DNA from: Sporomusaceae bacterium
GTDB lineage: Bacteria > Bacillota > Negativicutes > UBA1444
Length of the DNA: 64,000 nt
NCBI GenBank assembly: GCA_018434355.1
Contig: JAHDPL010000031.1
Coordinates: 567 to 64,566 of the forward strand
Reading direction: 5' to 3'
The translations under genes and the position numbers were made by a program. Numbering within the stretch: the first letter of the stretch is position 1; each line of letters starts with the position of its first letter. Below are positions 15,422-53,313 of the stretch, in pieces. Under the pieces are notes generated by a model. That model was not told the DNA's origin. It did not search any database and worked only from the letters and a program-made list of their open reading frames with translations.

Positions 15422-15451
15422 TTGACAGTGCAGGAAGCCACGGAGTAGAAT
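15422..15451 (+). promoter_or_regulatory. Sigma-70-type promoter (TTGACA-18-TAGAAT)
   Basis: Consensus -35 TTGACA at 15422-15427, 18-nt spacer, TAGAAT at 15446-15451. Confidence 0.65.
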
Positions 15452-15457
15452 AAACGT

Positions 15458-15717
15458 AAAGTTGTCAAACCGCAAAAGGAACCAGAGAGTAGAGGAGCGA
15501 GTAACATTAGTAACGCCGGCGAGAGGGACATCGCTGACCCGGCGCGAAAGGGTGGTCGCCGAAGCGTGGAATGCGTCCGACGTTCCAGGCTGGGTGCGCA
15601 TCGAACAGGTGCGTGACTGTCACCGAAGTTGGTGAAGCGCTATCTCATGAAGCGGCAAACACGATTCGTGTCTTTGGATGCCGTACACCGGGAGAATGCT
15701 CGCCGGTGTTTTATTTT
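15458..15717 (+). promoter_or_regulatory. Structured 5' leader of about 260 nt ending in an intrinsic terminator; T-box-like, class unresolved
   Basis: AGAGAGTA at 15484-15491, AGTAAC-ATT-AGTAAC, AAAGGGTGGT at 15547-15556, several short hairpins, then the terminator at 15685-15717, about 35 nt before the livJ start. Confidence 0.45.
15685..15717 (+). terminator. Leader (attenuator) terminator upstream of livJ
   Basis: ACACCGGGAG...CTCGCCGGTGT stem followed by TTTTATTTT. Confidence 0.75.
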
Positions 15718-15752: not shown

Positions 15753-16907
15753 TTGTCAAAGCAGCTGCGTATCCTGTCCCTAGTTCTGGTTGTAGCATTC
15801 CTTGTCGTAGTAGCCGGGTGCGGCGGATCGCCGGCGGCGCCGGCAGGCCAACAAGCCAAGGCGAAAATCACCATTGCGATGGTAAATCCGCTGACCGGGG
15901 ATGCGGCAACCTATGGCGTCAGCCACCGCAAAGGCCTGGAAATGGCATTGGAAGAAATCAACAAGGCTGGTGGCATCAAAGGCCAGCAAATCGAACTGCT
16001 GACGCACGATGACGCCGGAGATCCCAAGCAAGCGGCCGCCGGCGCGCAAAAGTTCGCCGACATGAAGAGCGTGGTGACGATCGTCGGTTCCTGCCTTAGC
16101 TCCAACACGCTGGCAATGGTGCCGATTACCGACAAGGCCAAAGTTCCCCACTCCGTCGTTTCTTCCAGTACTCACAAACTGTCCGGCATGAGCAAGTACT
16201 TCTTCCGGATGGCGGTGCAGGATGACAAGGTTGGCGGACTGATGGTCGACTTGTCGGCCCAGAAGTTCAAGCCGAAGAAAATGGCGCTGCTGTATCTGAA
16301 CAACGATTACGGCAAGGGTCTGTTGACGTCGACCCAGGCCCAGGCGAAAAAACTCGGTATCGAAATGACCTCCGCCCAAACCTATCTGGCGACCGACAAA
16401 GACTATTCGGCCCTGTTGACAAAAGTGAAAGCGGAAGCGCCGGAAGTGTTGCTGGTTGGCAGCACCTACACCGATGGCGGTTTGATCGTAAAACAGGCGC
16501 GGGAAATGGGCCTGAACATGCCAATCGTAGGACCGACCGGCCTGTATAGCCCCAAGTATTTGGAAATCGCCGGCAAAGCTGTTGAGAACACCTATTTCCT
16601 CGGCGTGTTCGTGCCGACCAACCCCGATCCCAAGGTGCAGGAATTCGTTAAGAAATATAAAGAGAAATATGGCATGGACCCCGATACCTTCGCCGCACTG
16701 GCCTATGATCAGGGGTATGTCCTAAAGGACGCGCTGGAAAAAGCTGCAGCCAAAGGCGCGGTCACCCGCGAAAGCATGCGTGATGCGATGGCCGCCAGCT
16801 CCTTTAAAGGAATCACCGGCACCGTCACCTTTGATGACAAAGGCGACTGGGTTCGCCCGTACCTGTTCGTAACCGTCAAGGACGGCAAATTCGTCGTCGC
16901 CCAATAA
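15753..16907 (+). CDS. livJ: Branched-chain/hydrophobic amino-acid ABC transporter substrate-binding lipoprotein (LivJ/BraC family)
   Basis: TTG 15753 has a GAAGGAGGA RBS. Lipobox VAGCGGS. Type I PBP sequence (ITIAMVNPLTGDAATYG...). The track ORF starts at 15678, inside the terminator. Confidence 0.8.
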   Translation: MSKQLRILSLVLVVAFLVVVAGCGGSPAAPAGQQAKAKITIAMVNPLTGDAATYGVSHRKGLEMALEEINKAGGIKGQQIELLTHDDAGDPKQAAAGAQKFADMKSVVTIVGSCLSSNTLAMVPITDKAKVPHSVVSSSTHKLSGMSKYFFRMAVQDDKVGGLMVDLSAQKFKPKKMALLYLNNDYGKGLLTSTQAQAKKLGIEMTSAQTYLATDKDYSALLTKVKAEAPEVLLVGSTYTDGGLIVKQAREMGLNMPIVGPTGLYSPKYLEIAGKAVENTYFLGVFVPTNPDPKVQEFVKKYKEKYGMDPDTFAALAYDQGYVLKDALEKAAAKGAVTRESMRDAMAASSFKGITGTVTFDDKGDWVRPYLFVTVKDGKFVVAQ

Positions 16908-16933
16908 GTTTGTAGCAACAGCGTTCAACGCAG

Positions 16934-16969
16934 GCGCGGGAGCGGCCAGACCGTTCCCGCGCATTTTCT
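16934..16969 (+). terminator. Intra-operon hairpin/partial terminator after the binding-protein gene
   Basis: GCGCGGGAGCGG-CCAGA-CCGTTCCCGCGC, a 12-bp stem with one G-U pair, then ATTTTCTC. Confidence 0.55.
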
Positions 16970-16985
16970 CAGCGGAGGTGTCGAT

Positions 16986-17870
16986 TTGGTCCTGATACAA
17001 CAAATCATCAATGGCATGGCGCTCGGTGGGATCTATTCGCTGATCGCGATCGGCTGGACGGTCGTGTTCGGCATTGTCGGCCTGATTAACTGGACGCATG
17101 GCGAAGTGTTCATGATTGGCGCCTTTGTTGGCTTCTTCATGGTATCTGTTTTTAAAGTGAATTTAATCGCCGCGCTGATCATCGCGATGATGGCGAGTGG
17201 TCTGGTGGCGTTATTGATCGACCGGATGGCATATCGACCGCTCAGGACCAGTCCGAAACTGGCGGCGTTCATTACGGCGCTCGGCGCTTCGACGTTCTTG
17301 CGCTATCTGGCGGCGCTGGTCTGGGAGCCGCACGCCAGGGCGTATCCGGCCACCTTTGAATTCTCGGTGGTGCATATTCCGTTTGGCGCCAGTACGTTGA
17401 CCATAAACAGTCTGCAATTATTCATCTTTGCGGTTACCCTAGTCATCATGGCGCTGTTGCAATGGTTCATCACCCGCACGATGATGGGAAAAGCGATGCT
17501 GGCGGCTTCGCAGGATTTCGAAATGGTCGGCCTGATGGGCGTGGAAGTCGAAAAACTGGTAATGCTGACTTTTGGTGTCAGCGGCATGCTGGGCGGCGCC
17601 GCCGGGGTGCTGGTCGGCGTGCTGTATGCGATTGACCCGATGATGGGTTCGATGGCCGGGCTGAAAGGCTGGGCGGTCGCCGTGCTCGGCGGCGTCGGCA
17701 GCATCTCGGGGGCAATGGTGGCGGGGCTGCTGCTGGGCATTGCCGAGAATGTCTCTTCCGCTTACATCTCCTCCGGTTATCGCGACGCGATCGCCTTTGT
17801 CGCGATGATTCTGACGCTGATTGTCAAACCGACCGGCCTGATGGGCTTCAAATTTGAGGAGAAAGTATAG
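16986..17870 (+). CDS. livH: Branched-chain amino-acid ABC permease LivH
   Basis: N-terminus QQIINGMALGGIYSLIAIGWTVVFG is typical of LivH; polytopic. Confidence 0.85.
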   Translation: MVLIQQIINGMALGGIYSLIAIGWTVVFGIVGLINWTHGEVFMIGAFVGFFMVSVFKVNLIAALIIAMMASGLVALLIDRMAYRPLRTSPKLAAFITALGASTFLRYLAALVWEPHARAYPATFEFSVVHIPFGASTLTINSLQLFIFAVTLVIMALLQWFITRTMMGKAMLAASQDFEMVGLMGVEVEKLVMLTFGVSGMLGGAAGVLVGVLYAIDPMMGSMAGLKGWAVAVLGGVGSISGAMVAGLLLGIAENVSSAYISSGYRDAIAFVAMILTLIVKPTGLMGFKFEEKV

Positions 17871-17883
17871 GGGAGGCATCTGC

Positions 17884-18879
17884 ATGGCTTGGAGACAATG
17901 GCTGCAAGGCTGGCGCGGCGCTTTCCTCTTGTCGGCCTTCGTACTGGGAGTCAGTTTTATCGACTCCGTGCTGAATCGTCCTGAATATCTGTTTCCGCCC
18001 TACTTCAAACATGTATTGCTAATTAGCCTGATTTACAGCATCGCGGCGCTAAGCCTGAACTTTGTTTCCGGCTATATTGGCCAGACTTCGCTGGGACATG
18101 CCGCGTTCTTCGGTCTGGGTGCCTTTACTTCCGCCCTGCTGACGCAGGAGTTGCATTGGCCGTTCTGGCCGGCGTTTTTGGCGGCCGGCGTTGTCTCGGC
18201 TGTTGTCGGCTTGCCGCTTGGCGCGCCGGCGGTGCGGGTGCGCGGACCGTTCCTGGTTGTCGTGACCTACGGCTGCGGCGAAGTATTCAAATACATTGCC
18301 CTCAACCTGGAAGTGACCGGTGGACCGGCCGGCCTGCCCGGTTTGGTGACTCCTTCGCTATTCGTCAGTTTCAATGACATCGGCGCTACCGGCAAAGAGG
18401 CGTTTATTGTGCTTGCCCTGGTATTGGCGCTATTTCTGGCGTTTTTCTCGCGGCGAATCGAAAATTCGCGCGTTGGCCAGGCATTTGCCGCCATCCGCGA
18501 AGATGAAATCGCCGCCTCGGCGATGGGTGTCAATGTAACTTATTACAAATTGCTGGCATTTGTGCTGTCGGCATTCTTTGCCGGACTGGCAGGCAGCCTG
18601 CTGGCGCATTATCTGTCGTTTGTCAGCCCGGACATGCTCAGCTCGGCCGAGTCGATCATGATGCTGACAATGGTCGTCGTCGGCGGCGCCCGCAGCATCC
18701 ATGGCTGCTTCCTTGGCGCTTTCCTGTTGACAATTCTGCCGGAAGCGCTGCGTATGATCAAGGACACGATCGGCCTGCCGTTCGACCCTTGGCTGGTGTT
18801 GTTCGGCCTGATTCTGATTCTGATGATGCGGGTCCGTCCCCAGGGGATCTTGGGCGCCGACACCGTGTTCCGCCGATAA
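17884..18879 (+). CDS. livM: Branched-chain amino-acid ABC permease LivM
   Basis: LSLNFVSGYIGQTSLGHAAFFGLGAF motif. ATG 17884 has a GGGGAGG RBS; the track ORF starts at 17854. Confidence 0.85.
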   Translation: MAWRQWLQGWRGAFLLSAFVLGVSFIDSVLNRPEYLFPPYFKHVLLISLIYSIAALSLNFVSGYIGQTSLGHAAFFGLGAFTSALLTQELHWPFWPAFLAAGVVSAVVGLPLGAPAVRVRGPFLVVVTYGCGEVFKYIALNLEVTGGPAGLPGLVTPSLFVSFNDIGATGKEAFIVLALVLALFLAFFSRRIENSRVGQAFAAIREDEIAASAMGVNVTYYKLLAFVLSAFFAGLAGSLLAHYLSFVSPDMLSSAESIMMLTMVVVGGARSIHGCFLGAFLLTILPEALRMIKDTIGLPFDPWLVLFGLILILMMRVRPQGILGADTVFRR

Positions 18880-18891
18880 GGAGGCTTGGAT

Positions 18892-19654
<763 letters not shown>

Positions 19655-19677
<23 letters not shown>

Positions 19678-20356
19678 TGTATACTACGGTGCGATCCACG
19701 CTGTGCGTAACGTCAGTTTGGAAGTGCATGCCGGCGAGATCGTGTCGATCATCGGCGCTAACGGAGCTGGCAAGTCAACGATTCTGAAAACATTGGTCGG
19801 TTTGCTGCGCAGCAAGACCGGAGAGATCTGCCTGGACGGCAAAAGTATCGCTGATCTGTCGCCTGCGGCAATCGTGCAGCAGGGTATTGCGCTGGTGCCG
19901 GAAGGGCGGCGGGTGTTTCCCCGCCTGTCGGTGGAAGATAACCTGCTGTTGGGCGCTTATGCGCGCAAAGACAACGAAGTGTCCCGCGACATGCAGCGGA
20001 TTTATGAAATGTTTCCCCGCTTGTTTGAGCGCAAGAAACAGAATGCCGGGACTTTGTCAGGCGGCGAGCAGCAGATGCTGGCTACCGGACGCGGCATGAT
20101 GAGCCGACCCCGGCTGCTGCTGCTGGATGAACCGTCGATGGGGTTGGCGCCGCTACTCGTCAATCAGATTTTCGAGACGATTCTTGATATCAACGAACAG
20201 GGAACCACGATCTTGCTGGTGGAACAGAATGCCCATATGGCACTGTCGATCGCCGACCGCGGTTATGTGCTGGAAACCGGCGAAGTGGTGCTGGCAGGGC
20301 AAGCCGAAGAACTGATCGATAATGATGAGGTGCGCTGCGCCTATCTGGGGGAATAG
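19655..20356 (+). CDS. livF: Branched-chain amino-acid ABC ATPase LivF
   Basis: GANGAGKST, LSGGEQQMLATGRGM, LLLLDEPSMGL. I chose TTG 19655 because GAGGGA lies upstream; the track ORF starts at 19565, inside livG. Confidence 0.85.
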
Positions 20357-20359
20357 AGA

Positions 20360-20665
20360 ATGAGAGTGGAAAAACACCCGGTGCTGGGCGACCGCAAGGT
20401 CGGCCGGATGGTAACCATTTCGGTGGACGGGGCCGAAATCGAAGCGGTGGAAGGCGAACCGATCGCCGCCGCACTGCTGGCTCAGGGGATGATCGTGATG
20501 CGCAAGACACCCCGGTTTGGCGAACCGCGCGGTGTCTTTTGCGGTATTGGCCGCTGCACCGACTGTGCGATGACGGTGGATGGCGTGCCCAATGTACGGA
20601 CCTGCGTCACGCCGGTGAAGGCAGGCATGGTCATCACTTCCAACCTGAAAGGGGGCGGTGAGTGA
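20360..20665 (+). CDS. Small [2Fe-2S]-binding subunit (HcnA / sarcosine-oxidase-alpha N-terminal type)
   Basis: Cys cluster FCGIGRCTDCAMTVDGVPNVRTC. Starts 3 nt after the livF stop. Confidence 0.75.
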   Translation: MRVEKHPVLGDRKVGRMVTISVDGAEIEAVEGEPIAAALLAQGMIVMRKTPRFGEPRGVFCGIGRCTDCAMTVDGVPNVRTCVTPVKAGMVITSNLKGGGE

Positions 20666-21792
20666 TGGCAACAGGGCAGACTTTTGATATTGTCGTCGTT
20701 GGCGCCGGTCCAGCCGGGTTGGCAGCAGCGATCGAAGCCGCCAAGCGCGGCGCACGGACGCTGGTGGTCGATGAAAACAACAAGCCGGGCGGGCAGTTGT
20801 TCAAACAGATTCATAAATTTTTCGGCTCGCACGAACACCGGGCCGGTGTGCGCGGCTATGACATCGGTCGGCAGTTGCTGGATGAAGCGGCGAAATGCGG
20901 CGTGGAAGTGTGGTTGGACGCCGTGGTGCACGGCCTGTTTAATCAGCGGCTGGCCGTATTGCGTGAAGGGCGGCAGGTGACGGTGGAAGCCGGACGGATC
21001 ATTTTGGCGACCGGCGCATCGGAGAACGCGGTAGCGTTCCCCGGTTCGACCTTGCCTGGCGTGATGGGAGCCGGCGCGATCCAGACGATGATCAACGTGC
21101 ACCGGGTGTTGCCGGGGAACCGGTTTGTCATGCTGGGTTCCGGCAATGTCGGCCTGATTGTCTGCTATCAGCTGATGCAGGCCGGCGCGGAAGTGCTGGC
21201 GGTGGTGGAAGCCATGCCGTCAATCGGCGGCTACGGTGTGCATGCAGCCAAGATTCGCCGGGCCGGCGTACCGATTTTGGTCGGCACGACGATCAGCCGG
21301 GTGGTTGGCCAGGGTAAAGTCGAATCTGTCGTACTGGCGACATTGGGGCCGGATGGCAAGATCGATCCGCAGTCTGAACGGACGCTGGCCGCCGATACGG
21401 TTGGATTGGCCGTCGGCCTGACACCGCTGACTGAACTGGCCTGGATGGCCGGCTGCGAGTTTTTCTTTTCACCCAAGCTCGGCGGCCATTTGCCGCTGCA
21501 TGATGATAATATGCTGACCAGCTTGCCTTACTTATATGTGGCCGGCGATATCACCGGCGTGGAAGAAGCCTCGACCGCGATGGAAGAGGGCCGGCTGGCA
21601 GGGATTGCTGCCGCCGAGTCGCTGGGATTGTTGGCGGCGGCTGCCGCAGCGGCCGACAAGGCTGCCGTCCGGCAGCGGATTGATGTGCTGCGGTCCGGCC
21701 CGTTCGGCGAAGGCCGGCGGCTGGCCAAGGCGGAAATTTTGCAGCAGCAGGCGCTGCGGTCTCGGCAAGGAGGACAATCATGGAAGGCGTAA
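20662..21792 (+). CDS. FAD/NAD(P)-binding pyridine-nucleotide-disulfide-type oxidoreductase subunit (HcnB/OoxA/PdhA-like)
   Basis: Two Rossmann motifs (VVVGAGPAGLAAA and VMLGSGNVGL) and the C-terminal YVAGDITG motif. Overlaps the upstream stop (GTGATG). Confidence 0.8.
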   Translation: MMATGQTFDIVVVGAGPAGLAAAIEAAKRGARTLVVDENNKPGGQLFKQIHKFFGSHEHRAGVRGYDIGRQLLDEAAKCGVEVWLDAVVHGLFNQRLAVLREGRQVTVEAGRIILATGASENAVAFPGSTLPGVMGAGAIQTMINVHRVLPGNRFVMLGSGNVGLIVCYQLMQAGAEVLAVVEAMPSIGGYGVHAAKIRRAGVPILVGTTISRVVGQGKVESVVLATLGPDGKIDPQSERTLAADTVGLAVGLTPLTELAWMAGCEFFFSPKLGGHLPLHDDNMLTSLPYLYVAGDITGVEEASTAMEEGRLAGIAAAESLGLLAAAAAAADKAAVRQRIDVLRSGPFGEGRRLAKAEILQQQALRSRQGGQSWKA

Positions 21793-22544
21793 AATTGACC
21801 GGCGCGCTGAGCGCCGCTGAAGCAGCGAGTGTGTTTCCGCCAAACGAGCGAGCCGAGCGGGGGCCGGTCGCCGTGATCGAATGTGTGCAGCAGATTCCCT
21901 GTAACCCCTGTGAAAAAGCCTGTCCGTTCGGTGCGATCGAAGTAGGACCCGACATCACCAACCTGCCTCGGCTGGATCTCGACAAGTGCCAGGGTTGCGG
22001 TTTGTGTCTGAGCAAATGCCCGGGGCTGGCGATTTTTCTGGTCGATGCGTCGAAATCGGCAACCGAAGCCCTGGTGATGTTTCCCTACGAATACCTGCCG
22101 CTGCCCGCAGCGGATGAAATTGTCGACGGGGTCGACCGCACCGGCCGGTTCGTTACAAAAGCCCGCGTGGTCAAGGTCGACACAGGGGCGCAGCGGGAAG
22201 GCACTGCGATTGTGACGCTGGCCGTGCCAAAACAATATATGCATGACGTGCGCAGTATGCGCCTGGTCGCGCCGGGCGAGGTGTTCCTCTGCCGCTGCTG
22301 CGAAGTTTCGGAGACCGAAGTGCGGCAAGCCGTGCGCGAAGGCGCAAAAACGGTGGTTGCCGTGAAAATGCGCACCCGGGCCGGCATGGGACTGTGCCAG
22401 GGCCGCACCTGCCGCCGCCTGATCAGCCGGGTGATCGCCGAAGAGACCGGCCAGTCGCCGGCTGATATTCTGCCGCCGACCAGTCGCGCCCCGGTGAGGA
22501 CGTTGTCGCTGGAAGCGCTGGCCGGGGGTGACGACAATGAGTAA
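21780..22544 (+). CDS. Ferredoxin-like subunit: 2x[4Fe-4S] domain plus BFD-like [2Fe-2S] domain
   Basis: CNPCEKACP and CQGCGLCLSKCP motifs. CRCCEVSETEV...GLCQGRTC is BFD-like. Overlaps both neighbours. Confidence 0.75.
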   Translation: MEGVKLTGALSAAEAASVFPPNERAERGPVAVIECVQQIPCNPCEKACPFGAIEVGPDITNLPRLDLDKCQGCGLCLSKCPGLAIFLVDASKSATEALVMFPYEYLPLPAADEIVDGVDRTGRFVTKARVVKVDTGAQREGTAIVTLAVPKQYMHDVRSMRLVAPGEVFLCRCCEVSETEVRQAVREGAKTVVAVKMRTRAGMGLCQGRTCRRLISRVIAEETGQSPADILPPTSRAPVRTLSLEALAGGDDNE

Positions 22545-23649
22545 CAAGGCGGAAGTGATTGTCATTGGCGGCGGTGTCATCGGCACGTCGGTCGCCTACT
22601 ATGCGGCCAAAGCAGGCAAGCGGGTCGTACTGCTGGACCGGGGCGACATTGCCGCCGGGACCTCCGGCGCTTGCGACGGGTTTATCATCATGCAGTCAAA
22701 GAATCCGGGGCCGCATCTGGACCTGGCGATGCAAAGCGCGGCGCTATACCGGACGCTAGCGGCGGAACTGGACTATGACATCGAATACATGCCCTGCGGC
22801 GGCATGATTGTGGCGGAATCGGAAAAACAGGCCCAGCTGCTGCAAGGTCTGATTGCCAAGCAAAAACAGGCCGGCCTGCAGGTCGAGCTGTTGCCGATCG
22901 CCCAGGCGCGGCAATCGGAGCCGCTGCTGGCGGCAGACCTCTGGGGCGCAGCATACTGCGCCAACGACGCCCAGGTCAATCCGATCCGGCTGGCGCAGGG
23001 CTTTGCCCAGGCGGCGCGTCGGCTCGGTGCGCAGATCCGTCCCGGCGTCGAAGTACAGGCGCTGCTGGAGGAAAATGGCCGCGTCTGCGGCGTGAAAACC
23101 GGACAGGGAGAGCTGCGGGCTGACTATGTGGTCAATGCGACCGGCGTCTGGGCGCCGACACTGTTGTCGCCGTTCGGCATCGAGCTGCCGATCAAGCCGC
23201 GTCGCGGCCAGATTTTGGTTACCGAACCGTTGCCGCCGATGCTGAATCATGTCCTGCTGTGCGCCTGCTACCTGATTGCCAAGTATCACCCGGAAGAGCT
23301 GGACCCGACGGATCGTCAGCATCGGCTGGGCGTCGGACTGGCGGTCGAGCAGACGGCGCATGGCAGCCTGCTGATCGGCAGCACCCGTGAGTTCGCCGGT
23401 TTTGACCGCAAAACGACGCTGGCGGGAATCGAGGCGGTGGCGCAGCATGCCCGGCGGATTTTGCCGGCGCTGGCCAAAGTGAACATTATCCGGACTTTTG
23501 CCGGCCTGCGGCCGCACACGCCGGATGGGTTGCCGATCCTGGGGCCGGTGGAGGGGTTGCCGGGACTGATTATGGCGGCAGGGCACGAAGGCGACGGCAT
23601 CGCGCTGGCGCCGATCACCGGCCAGAAAGTGGCGGAGTATCTGAAATAG
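22537..23649 (+). CDS. FAD-dependent amine/amino-acid oxidoreductase (DAO family; HcnC/OoxB/sarcosine-oxidase-beta-like)
   Basis: VIVIGGGVIGTSVAYY dinucleotide motif, C-terminal AAGHEGDGIALAP. ATG 22537 overlaps the upstream stop; the track ORF starts at 22528. Confidence 0.8.
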   Translation: MSNKAEVIVIGGGVIGTSVAYYAAKAGKRVVLLDRGDIAAGTSGACDGFIIMQSKNPGPHLDLAMQSAALYRTLAAELDYDIEYMPCGGMIVAESEKQAQLLQGLIAKQKQAGLQVELLPIAQARQSEPLLAADLWGAAYCANDAQVNPIRLAQGFAQAARRLGAQIRPGVEVQALLEENGRVCGVKTGQGELRADYVVNATGVWAPTLLSPFGIELPIKPRRGQILVTEPLPPMLNHVLLCACYLIAKYHPEELDPTDRQHRLGVGLAVEQTAHGSLLIGSTREFAGFDRKTTLAGIEAVAQHARRILPALAKVNIIRTFAGLRPHTPDGLPILGPVEGLPGLIMAAGHEGDGIALAPITGQKVAEYLK

Positions 23650-23913
23650 AGTTTTGCGACAACAAGCAAGCACTGAATAATTCCGCGCATTGTTGTTTTC
23701 ACCTAAATTCGTAGCGTCATGCAGCAACTACCAAACGGACTAAACTGCTTCATCCGTCGCATTAGTCCTAAAATCAACGTCCATGTTGATTTTCTCGCAA
23801 TTCATCGCTGCATGACGACGAATTATACGGTTCAAATCAAAGATGCGCTTCATTATTTCAGTGCTTCCTCCCATTTTCGTGTCTCATCCATCATTTCCAC
23901 AAGAATAAAATTA

Positions 23914-23959
23914 AACGGGGCTGTGCGAGAACTCATTGAGAGTCTTGCACAGCCCCGTT
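23914..23959. terminator. Strong bidirectional terminator
   Basis: AACGGGGCTGTGC...GCACAGCCCCGTT with T-rich flanks on both strands. Lies 21 nt beyond the stop of the minus-strand dctM. Confidence 0.85.
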
Positions 23960-23979
23960 GATTTTATTCAGTTCTTCCC

Positions 23980-52558: not shown

Positions 52559-52632
52559 TATATTAATAGGCTTGCCAAAAGCAAATATGGTATGATTTTG
52601 CTATAGTAAATGCGAGGACGGAGGGCGTGCAC

Positions 52633-53313
52633 ATGAAAACAGGCGTCATCGGCGCGGGCCGGATGGGGAAAAGACTGGCGCAGCGACTGTCTGGGAAACA
52701 TGACGTATTTCTGTATGACGCGGACCCGGCTGCGGCCCAGGCTGCGGCGCAGGCGCTCGGGCTGCGGGCGGCGGCGGACCTGACTGGAGAATCGGCGGAC
52801 GCGCTAGTGTTGGCTGTGCCCGATATGGCGGTCAAGCCCTGTATCGAGATGCTATTGGCGCAGCAGGCGACGGCGCTGGTGTTTAATGTGGCTACGAATA
52901 TTTCCCGGGAAATGTTGGCTGAAATGGCAGGTGCTTCGCTACGCGCTCTCAATGTAAAGCTCATCGGTCACGCCGGAGAGATGGGCTGCGGCGGGCAGCC
53001 GGTCATCGTCGTCGACGAGGCCGAGCCGGCGCTGGCCGCGGTTGCCGCCGAACTATTCGCACCGGTCGGCAGCGTGGTGCTGGCGAATGCGGATGTGGTT
53101 CAGACGATCAACGTCATTGCCACCGAGCAGGCATTGAAAGCGGCGGTAATGCTCGAACAGGCGCTGCGGACGGCAGGAATAGAAAACTGGCAGATGATCC
53201 ACGGCGCGTTGTCAGTGGTGGCGCCCGGCGTAATCAAGGCCTATGCCGAAGATGATCTGGGGCCATTTGCGCGAAGAATCATCGCTGCATTGCGCGAGGA
53301 GGGCTTGCCATGA
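52633..53313 (+). CDS. NAD(P)-binding ProC-like / F420-oxidoreductase-like dehydrogenase
   Basis: N-terminal Rossmann motif GVIGAGRMG, about 226 aa. GGAGGG RBS before ATG 52633. Confidence 0.6.
   Translation: MKTGVIGAGRMGKRLAQRLSGKHDVFLYDADPAAAQAAAQALGLRAAADLTGESADALVLAVPDMAVKPCIEMLLAQQATALVFNVATNISREMLAEMAGASLRALNVKLIGHAGEMGCGGQPVIVVDEAEPALAAVAAELFAPVGSVVLANADVVQTINVIATEQALKAAVMLEQALRTAGIENWQMIHGALSVVAPGVIKAYAEDDLGPFARRIIAALREEGLP

Follow-up and report, generated by a model that had tools for sequence, protein, structure and literature searches.

In the genome of a Sporomusaceae bacterium (GenBank assembly GCA_018434355.1, contig JAHDPL010000031.1), a stretch of 64,000 nt, to which we refer in its full length as the window, carries an operon of nine genes that encode a Liv-type ATP-binding cassette (ABC) importer and a four-subunit flavo-iron-sulfur enzyme, and this operon lies behind a full-length lysine riboswitch. 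Riboswitches are among the most reliable pointers to function, as they state which metabolite a gene set serves; here, the lysine sensor places a widespread and uncharacterised flavo-iron-sulfur dehydrogenase of anaerobes, together with a Liv-type importer, in lysine supply. The families to which enzyme and importer belong, the class of the riboswitch and the layout of importer plus oxidase are each known, and we know of no earlier account of their combination. We put the chance at about even that a cell starved of lysine uses these genes to import and oxidise an amine or imino acid that yields lysine.

Leader and layout of the operon

The nine open reading frames (ORFs) lie tightly packed on the plus strand, and the ORF list and domain searches gave them the expected domains, which confirms the gene content given in a preliminary description of this DNA. 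The leader and the genes are as follows.

15422..15451, plus strand: sigma-70-type promoter, TTGACA-18-TAGAAT (11 of 12 consensus matches)
15482..15650, plus strand: lysine riboswitch aptamer (RF00168; 103.5 bits, E 1.7e-28)
15652..15684, plus strand: linker hairpin (GCGGCA...TGCCGT) from aptamer to terminator, from RNA folds
15685..15717, plus strand: intrinsic terminator, stem ACACCGGGAG/CTCGCCGGTGT followed by TTTATTTT (hairpin -14.7 kcal/mol)
15753..16907, plus strand: LivJ-like substrate-binding lipoprotein of the HAAT family (Peripla_BP_6, 3e-69)
16986..17870, plus strand: LivH-like permease (BPD_transp_2, 3e-41)
17854..18879, plus strand: LivM-like permease (BPD_transp_2, 3e-46)
18886..19677, plus strand: LivG-like ATPase (ABC_tran and BCA_ABC_TP_C)
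19655..20356, plus strand: LivF-like ATPase (TTG start at 19655 behind a GAGGGA ribosome-binding site)
20360..20665, plus strand: small [2Fe-2S] subunit (Fer2_4; PF13510, 1e-28)
20662..21792, plus strand: subunit of flavin adenine dinucleotide (FAD) and nicotinamide adenine dinucleotide (NAD(H)) type, HcnB/OoxA/PdhA/FngB-like (Pyr_redox_2; PF07992, 4e-35)
21780..22544, plus strand: fusion of a 2x[4Fe-4S] ferredoxin domain with a BFD [2Fe-2S]/SO_alpha_A3 domain (Fer4 and Fer2_BFD/SO_alpha_A3 matches)
22528..23649, plus strand: catalytic DAO-family flavoprotein, the beta subunit (PF01266, 4e-81)

The first gene most likely starts at TTG 15753, upstream of which lies the ribosome-binding site GAAGGAGGA, and the N-terminus of the encoded binding protein is a lipoprotein signal whose last residues are VAGC. 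We set the start of livF at TTG 19655; the LivF model aligns only from residue 29 of the longer ORF. The gap between livF and the Fer2_4 gene is 3 nt and the four consecutive enzyme genes overlap by 4, 13 and 17 nt, so that a single transcript, as had been thought likely, still is.

The aptamer matches the Rfam covariance model RF00168 over positions 1-182 of 182, without truncation, and its 103.5 bits compare with a gathering score of 30 bits. Every conserved core block is intact, and the alignment with the genome's own dapB aptamer is close. The leader had been considered a possible T-box; that reading is rejected because a search of the leader against Rfam at a permissive E-value returned RF00168 alone, with no T-box and no other family. 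Related genomes have a comparable promoter ahead of the riboswitch. The whole genome contains two lysine riboswitches, the second of which heads dapB-asd-lysC-dapA-dapF-dapL, by nature a lysine-repressed operon. On the contig of that operon (C50), about 10 kb downstream of it, there is also an S-adenosylmethionine (SAM) riboswitch (L016:11411-11515).

The window leader and the dapB leader share one design. In both, the 3' strand of the P1 helix (...GCGCUAUCUC...) is followed 38-59 nt on by the terminator, the 5' arm of which (CCGGGAGA... or CCGGUGAGAUA...) mimics the P1 5' strand. When nascent transcripts were folded from the P1 3' strand through the terminator loop, a helix between the P1 3' strand and the terminator 5' arm was the minimum-energy fold in all six leaders (that of the window, four orthologous ones and that of dapB), and the linker hairpin sits within this antiterminator helix. 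As an isolated duplex, the same pairing has -14 to -17 kcal/mol in the relatives and the dapB leader, which is better than 91-99.6% of shuffled controls. Two results weigh against an antiterminator of this kind: the isolated duplex of the window leader has -8.2 kcal/mol, not above shuffled sequence, and full-length thermodynamic folds retain the terminator in both states, in the dapB leader as well, so that folds computed with a blocked P1 5' strand, set beside the minimum-energy folds, did not discriminate between ON and OFF; of the folds, those of the nascent transcripts were informative. The call is therefore drawn from the architecture and from the comparison with other leaders. Given the design shared with the dapB operon, the nine-gene operon is most likely repressed by lysine, and we consider it very probable that the switch is of the OFF type. 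At high lysine, the aptamer would keep P1, the terminator would form and transcription would end before the first gene; at low lysine, the P1 3' strand would pair with the terminator 5' arm and all nine genes would be transcribed.

An ON-type switch, by which lysine would induce genes for taking up and oxidising L-lysine, D-lysine or pipecolate, in the manner of the Pseudomonas D-lysine/pipecolate route, is in our estimate rather improbable. The catabolic genes kal and kce are reported to be activated by lysine riboswitches (PMC5584792), related enzyme modules with a racemase gene, once with that of a thiamine-dependent decarboxylase, look catabolic, and in the leader of one distant locus described below (L029) the ON or OFF logic could not be read. 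However, the terminator in the window has no overlap with P1 and starts 38 nt downstream of it, and the arm complementary to the P1 3' strand is the 5' one, not the 3' one; the dapB leader of the same genome, which serves biosynthesis, is built alike; and the operon lacks downstream catabolic enzymes, unlike a sigma-54-controlled paralogue that comes with an aldehyde dehydrogenase. It had been noted earlier that control of a catabolic enzyme by a starvation-induced T-box would be paradoxical. That form of the paradox falls with the T-box and a new one takes its place, an oxidising enzyme induced at low lysine, and induction when lysine is scarce argues for salvage over ordinary catabolism.

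We give very little credence to an aptamer that no longer responds to lysine, either as a relic or as a variant tuned to a lysine analogue such as the transported compound. Variants of ligand specificity are known in other riboswitch classes, and the antiterminator pairing is weak in the window copy. The 103.5-bit match to the whole model, the intact core blocks and the close alignment with the dapB aptamer of the same genome all argue against it.

The known lysine-riboswitch regulon comprises the biosynthetic genes lysC, asd, dapA, dapB and lysA, the transporter genes lysP, gabP, lysW/nhaC, yvsH and lysXY, and catabolic kal/kce (PMC5584792). The window operon has the same aptamer class and the same terminator/antiterminator design, and control of an uptake system fits the pattern (PMC5584792). 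Two published surveys of the regulon list no Liv-type (HAAT) importer and no DAO-type dehydrogenase among its members, and full-text literature searching found, among the papers listed, no relevant pairing of "lysine riboswitch" with sarcosine oxidase or related names of flavoenzymes and substrates.

The enzyme and the importer

The Fer2_4 protein has the cysteine pattern Cys61-X4-Cys66-X2-Cys69-X12-Cys82, which fits the gamma-subunit motif Cys-X4-Cys-X2-Cys-X11-12-Cys (PMC4575208), and it is the predicted equivalent of the gamma subunit of opine and D-hydroxyproline dehydrogenases and of the N-terminus of the alpha subunit of archaeal proline dehydrogenase (PDH). The Pyr_redox_2 subunit contains two dinucleotide motifs, GAGPAG at 14 and GSGNVG at 159, and Glu183, which follows the second of them, suggests that it would use NAD rather than NADP (NAD phosphate). 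The fusion subunit has 254 residues and three sets of cysteines (Cys35/41/44/48, Cys70/73/76/80 and Cys171/173/206/211); its ferredoxin part is, from its sequence, PdhF- or gamma-like and its BFD/A3 part PdhX- or delta-like, and the two halves are encoded by separate genes in L029, in Koleobacter and in a paralogous module of the same genome. The Cys-X-Cys...Cys-X4-Cys motif thus lies on the fusion polypeptide and not on the Pyr_redox_2 subunit, and its spacer is 32 residues long, compared with 15-20 in known alpha subunits.

The DAO subunit has a GGGVIG FAD motif at residue 14 and, in the alignment, an invariant arginine (Arg328) within GLRP. We take this arginine to be the one that binds the substrate carboxylate in the DAO family; if it does so here, the oxidised C-N bond would adjoin a carboxylate. 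Among solved structures, the best relative is the beta subunit of Pyrococcus horikoshii PDH (1y56_B, 2.5e-42), and glycine oxidases come next. An assignment as the glycine oxidase ThiO is not supported: against the ThiO model (TIGR02352), the subunit scores 231.7 bits, below the cut-off of 250.8, no thi genes lie nearby, and the identity to a ThiO is 30.5%, the ThiO chosen for comparison being one whose gene adjoins a thiamine phosphate synthase gene, thiS and a thiazole synthase gene. Arg-X-Trp, the proposed site of flavin mononucleotide (FMN), occurs nowhere in the DAO protein.

By these features, the complex is a bacterial version of the alpha-beta-gamma-delta PDH of Thermococcales. The dye-linked L-proline dehydrogenases of that type include PdhA/PdhB/PdhF/PdhX of Thermococcus profundus, that of T. 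litoralis and the P. horikoshii enzyme (PDB 1Y56) (PMC4364671, PMC4575208). Shared with them are the DAO beta subunit, the FAD/NAD(H) alpha subunit, the 2x[4Fe-4S] gamma subunit and the BFD/A3-like delta subunit, as well as the order alpha-gamma-delta-beta (PMC4364671, PMC4575208). In contrast to the archaeal enzyme, the [2Fe-2S] Fer2_4 protein is encoded by a separate gene, gamma and delta are fused and the Arg-X-Trp motif is missing; the host is an anaerobic bacterium, an ABC importer is joined on and a lysine riboswitch is in control. Proline is an improbable substrate, and a proline-like paralogue with an aldehyde dehydrogenase is encoded elsewhere in the genome. The resemblance to HcnABC, opine oxidase and the archaeal four-subunit PDH to which the preliminary description had pointed is thus borne out by 1y56_B, by the gamma-type cysteine motif and by the subunit scheme (PMC4575208, PMC4364671).

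Phylogenetic placement of the DAO subunit used OoxB, one ThiO, one SoxB-family protein and an Arthrobacter beta subunit linked to hydroxyproline epimerase as references, with HcnC, PdhB and LhpB left out. The subunit clustered tightly with none of these references, all of which lie on long branches, so that the check proposed at the outset tied it to no characterised enzyme among them. Its identity is 27.6% to OoxB, 30.5% to ThiO and 41% to the Arthrobacter protein, the gene for which adjoins a proline-racemase-family gene. The clade of the window protein is sister to a homologue from Syntrophobotulus glycolicus together with two stand-alone DAO genes, and the next branch holds the pair from L029 and L111, in which the module is coupled to a racemase. 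The S. glycolicus module (L025; CP002547.1, 1094747-1115868) is the nearest one outside Negativicutes, with a DAO protein 60% identical; it lies between a gamma-glutamyltranspeptidase gene and an ATC-hydrolase-like gene and has a polar-amino-acid ABC importer, and no riboswitch was detected at this locus.

The importer genes make up a complete five-component HAAT set: a Peripla_BP_6 receptor, two BPD_transp_2 permeases and two ATPases, one of them with a BCA_ABC_TP_C tail. All five proteins score under the NCBIfam equivalog cut-offs for the Leu/Ile/Val system of the Escherichia coli type, with 171 bits for the binding protein against the branched-chain receptor model (cut-off 477), 220 for the LivH-like permease (cut-off 379), 182 for the LivM-like permease (cut-off 366) and 279 for the LivG-like ATPase (cut-off 362), each of the latter three against the model of its own name. 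The nearest solved relatives of the binding protein are the amino-acid binders 4gnr, 3ipc, 3td9 and 4n0q. We compared its pocket with the published ligand-contact residues of E. coli LivJ (PMC6983066). Tyr18, Ser79, Tyr150 and Phe276 of LivJ are retained, and Leu77, Cys78, Ala100 and Ala101 are replaced by Cys, Leu, Ser and Ser, and Glu226 by Thr. Glu226 presumably binds the alpha-amino group in LivJ. As judged from these residues, the comparison shows a ligand that should differ from Leu, Ile and Val and does not name it.

Related loci and the proposed function

Six related genomes, which belong to three families of Negativicutes, carry these nine genes in identical order, with protein identities of 66-98%, so that the arrangement, for which a neighbourhood survey had been proposed, recurs and is not due to chance. 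Riboswitch and nine genes are found together in two other genomes of the same genus (L017 and L023) and in both genomes of a second family (L021 and L022). On three more contigs from the genus the gene order is kept and the contig ends inside the operon, and other contigs from the genus end before the leader. A close DAO homologue is present in 19 of the 400 genomes sampled from the class, the source genome included.

Farther afield, we searched genome contigs with the DAO alignment, and the matches listed, with L029 and L037 among them, are a broad sample rather than close relatives. A covariance model search (R1) of 51 other loci found the riboswitch in two of them, L029 and L037. In L029, from a distant Bacillota metagenome genome, a 103.5-bit lysine riboswitch lies directly ahead of Fer2_4-PyrR-Fer4-BFD-DAO, and behind the module come genes for a DctM-like transporter and a PRK07475-group racemase, with no liv genes in the region; the enzyme itself, not the importer alone, is therefore lysine-regulated there. 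The other complete lysine riboswitch of that genome precedes a gene that, judged by eye, starts like one for diaminopimelate decarboxylase. In L037, from a spirochaete, the module is interleaved with genes that score as dapA, asd and aspartate kinase, and it adjoins a riboswitch-controlled asd-dapB-dapA.

The four- or five-gene module is widespread in anaerobes, and its neighbours vary. One recurrent trio consists of the DAO module, a DctM-like or TAXI-TRAP transporter and an Asp/Glu-racemase-family protein of the PRK07475 group (L029:11250-13401, L111:11276-13390 and L037:1489-4190); module and racemase were also seen in L115-L118, and the trio recurs across several phyla. In Koleobacter (L027), the racemase gene and the DctM gene are on the opposite strand, and in L111 a gene for a thiamine-dependent decarboxylase comes after the trio. 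Searches of the source genome by tblastn with the racemases of L029 and L037 and the DctM-like protein of L029 did not find these partners, and a model of the nine-gene operon built on this racemase triad is for that reason not transferable.

The source genome has a paralogous module on the minus strand of contig C46 (L112:5760-13772), in the order sigma-54 activator with a PAS domain, Fer2_4, Pyr_redox_2, Fer4, BFD, DAO, aldehyde dehydrogenase and an orphan LivJ-like receptor. From its gene content, it looks like a catabolic system of the PDH type with a partner resembling pyrroline-5-carboxylate (P5C) dehydrogenase, and as such it forms a contrast to the riboswitch operon.

In two related families, a gene for an NAD(P)-Rossmann protein of about 230 residues, 64% identical between them, lies directly 3' of the DAO gene (L021:715-1428 and L022:374-1072, minus strand; L114:13057-13740, plus strand). 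The source genome has only a 43% paralogue, at 52627-53313 of the window (plus strand), 29 kb downstream and beside an unannotated protein of 447 residues. The Rossmann protein had no curated family match, its weak N-terminal Rossmann matches being far below the cut-offs, and a role as accessory reductase in the pathway is possible.

That importer and oxidising enzyme stand under an OFF lysine switch is best understood if the two together yield lysine. The importer would take up an amine or imino acid related to lysine, and the cytoplasmic enzyme, through its DAO subunit, would oxidise a C-N bond beside a carboxylate to give lysine or a compound one step away. The chemistry of the family, which includes the splitting of opines (PMC4575208) and the oxidation of cyclic imino acids or D-amino acids, leads to three candidates, which we do not firmly rank. 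An N6- or N2-(carboxyalkyl)-lysine, such as carboxymethyl-lysine, carboxyethyl-lysine, saccharopine or lysopine, would give lysine and a 2-oxo acid; D-lysine would give 6-amino-2-oxohexanoate, to be followed by transamination; and pipecolate is the third.

Uptake coupled to oxidation, as had been suggested for this locus, has a direct precedent in occQMPT-ooxB-(2Fe-2S)-ooxA of pTiA6, where the genes of an importer and of a heteromeric DAO-type oxidase stand side by side in one direction. Opine dehydrogenases such as OdhABC of Pseudomonas putida turn an N-carboxyalkyl amino acid into the parent amino acid and a 2-oxo acid (PMC4575208). The occ/oox genes share with the window operon the position of ABC importer genes beside those of a DAO-type dehydrogenase and the logic of taking up and splitting that we propose here. 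They differ in that their importer is of the polar-amino-acid type, not Liv, and that the 2x[4Fe-4S] subunit is missing; OoxB is only 27.6% identical, the host is aerobic and the inducer is the opine, not starvation for the released amino acid.

Several observations weigh against salvage of lysine. DAO relatives at 55-61% identity are found in quite different gene contexts, and specificity may therefore change quickly. In the third Negativicutes family the riboswitch is missing from L113, which has all nine genes and in whose leader R1 found none with filters off, and from L114, which has the four enzyme genes only; the link to lysine is thus not universal. An enzyme for a subsequent reaction, for instance an aminotransferase, is not encoded in the operon. 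At the pocket positions compared with E. coli LivJ, the binding protein has gained no acidic residue to match a lysine side chain, and the "dapA" of the spirochaete could be a deaminase of the dihydrodipicolinate synthase (DHDPS) family as in hydroxyproline pathways, for which reason we attach limited weight to L037. In L113 and L114, the leader is 400-600 nt long and holds a small conserved ORF (MGERLLVAAAV.../MVERLLVAAVV...) opposite a divergent PhoH/PIN gene (L113:3496-4070, L114:9346-9745).

The operon might instead encode a plain high-affinity importer of lysine or basic amino acids, comparable to lysP, yvsH and lysXY, with a dehydrogenase that is co-transcribed for unrelated reasons or helps indirectly, for example by oxidising some other imported amino acid, so that pyruvate, oxaloacetate or ammonia becomes available to the diaminopimelate (DAP) pathway. 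We think this unlikely, though it deserves weight: the transporters tied to lysine riboswitches are all thought to carry lysine (PMC5584792), the nearest solved relatives of the binding protein bind ordinary amino acids, and the DAO subunit is nearest to models of glycine oxidase and D-amino-acid dehydrogenase. However, in L029 the riboswitch stands directly before the dehydrogenase genes without any liv genes, which makes hitch-hiking unlikely, and the 3-nt gap, together with the conservation of all nine genes in three families, speaks for a common function.

The enzyme could also work in the reductive direction, as an imine or imino-acid reductase linked to NADH and ferredoxin that makes an amine required in lysine synthesis, with the importer supplying a keto or imino precursor. 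Reduction of imines by NADH is exergonic, and in two related lineages the gene for the NAD(P)-binding protein of about 230 residues follows the DAO gene. We nevertheless regard this direction as improbable, given that a complete DAP route, DapL and DapF included, is already encoded in the genome, and we know of no lysine precursor that needs such a reductive step. A reductive enzyme would be in keeping with the free reversibility of FngABC (PMC13689815); the characterised members of the family are, however, all dehydrogenases (PMC4575208).

For lysine salvage by oxidation, the FAD/NAD subunit would receive electrons from the substrate flavin by way of the [2Fe-2S] and [4Fe-4S] clusters. The potentials of amine/imine couples are well above that of NAD+/NADH, with proline/P5C at about -120 mV. 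FngABC of Pyrococcus furiosus, which founds the fifth class of bifurcating enzymes and is freely reversible, catalyses glycerol-3-phosphate (G3P) + 2 NAD+ + 2 reduced ferredoxin <-> dihydroxyacetone phosphate (DHAP) + 2 NADH + 2 oxidised ferredoxin (PMC13689815, October 2026), and it is built from a flavoprotein of the DAO family that bears a BFD cluster, an FAD/NAD subunit resembling HcnB/OoxA and a [4Fe-4S] subunit (PMC13689815). It thereby overcomes a donor potential too high for the reduction of NAD+ through co-oxidation of reduced ferredoxin. With FngABC, the window complex shares the DAO flavoprotein, the BFD [2Fe-2S] cluster, the HcnB-like FAD/NAD subunit and, as a candidate port for ferredoxin, a [4Fe-4S] module, distributed differently over the polypeptides. 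The high potential of amine/imine couples makes the same thermodynamic problem and a solution of the Fng type plausible; by this analogy, NAD+ and ferredoxin are plausible redox partners, and co-oxidation of reduced ferredoxin may drive the uphill reduction of NAD+. FngABC differs in its substrate, glycerol-3-phosphate, in the fusion of BFD to the flavoprotein, in its DUF1667 [4Fe-4S] subunit, in place of which the window complex has the 2x[4Fe-4S] ferredoxin domain, and in the lack of a Fer2_4 subunit. The motif GGQLFKQIHKFFGS (KQIH) of the Pyr_redox_2 subunit is conserved in all modules of the anaerobe type and absent from OoxA and the Arthrobacter alpha subunit; it resembles QCIH near the bifurcating flavin of Fng (PMC13689815), to which it may correspond.

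The fuller form of the proposal, a new route of lysine salvage in anaerobes in which a riboswitch-induced Liv importer and a bifurcating amine dehydrogenase act on environmental lysine derivatives, is tentative, and we hold it to be less probable than not. If true, it would give anaerobes a way to obtain lysine from modified or mirror-image forms, and this would matter for how glycation products, opine-like compounds and D-amino acids are turned over in sediments, digesters and guts. It would assign a substrate class to many genes annotated "sarcosine oxidase" or "HcnABC-like" in strict anaerobes, supply an amine-oxidising test case for, or member of, the Fng (fifth) bifurcating class and extend the lysine-riboswitch regulon by a new branch. 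Direct tests are possible for each of three parts: leader, binding protein and four-subunit enzyme.

Features within and around the operon

Two further elements were read from the sequence.

16934..16962, plus strand: strong hairpin of 12 bp, 10 of them G-C, 3' of the binding-protein gene
~23914..23968, both directions: two-way terminator (AACGGGGCTGTGC...GCACAGCCCCGTT and T-run)

The first is the sole strong hairpin inside the operon. Hairpins after a receptor gene are a common device for making more receptor than permease, and this one is probably a partial attenuator or stabiliser that gives the binding protein an excess over the permease. Between the DAO gene and the terminator, and overlapping the latter, lies an ORF of 80 codons (23719-23961 of the window) without a family match, which is probably not a gene. 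The two-way terminator ends both the nine-gene operon and a convergent TRAP/uxuA operon, and the upstream neighbour is an acetoin-dehydrogenase-like operon whose last gene encodes a lipoate synthase-like radical SAM protein.

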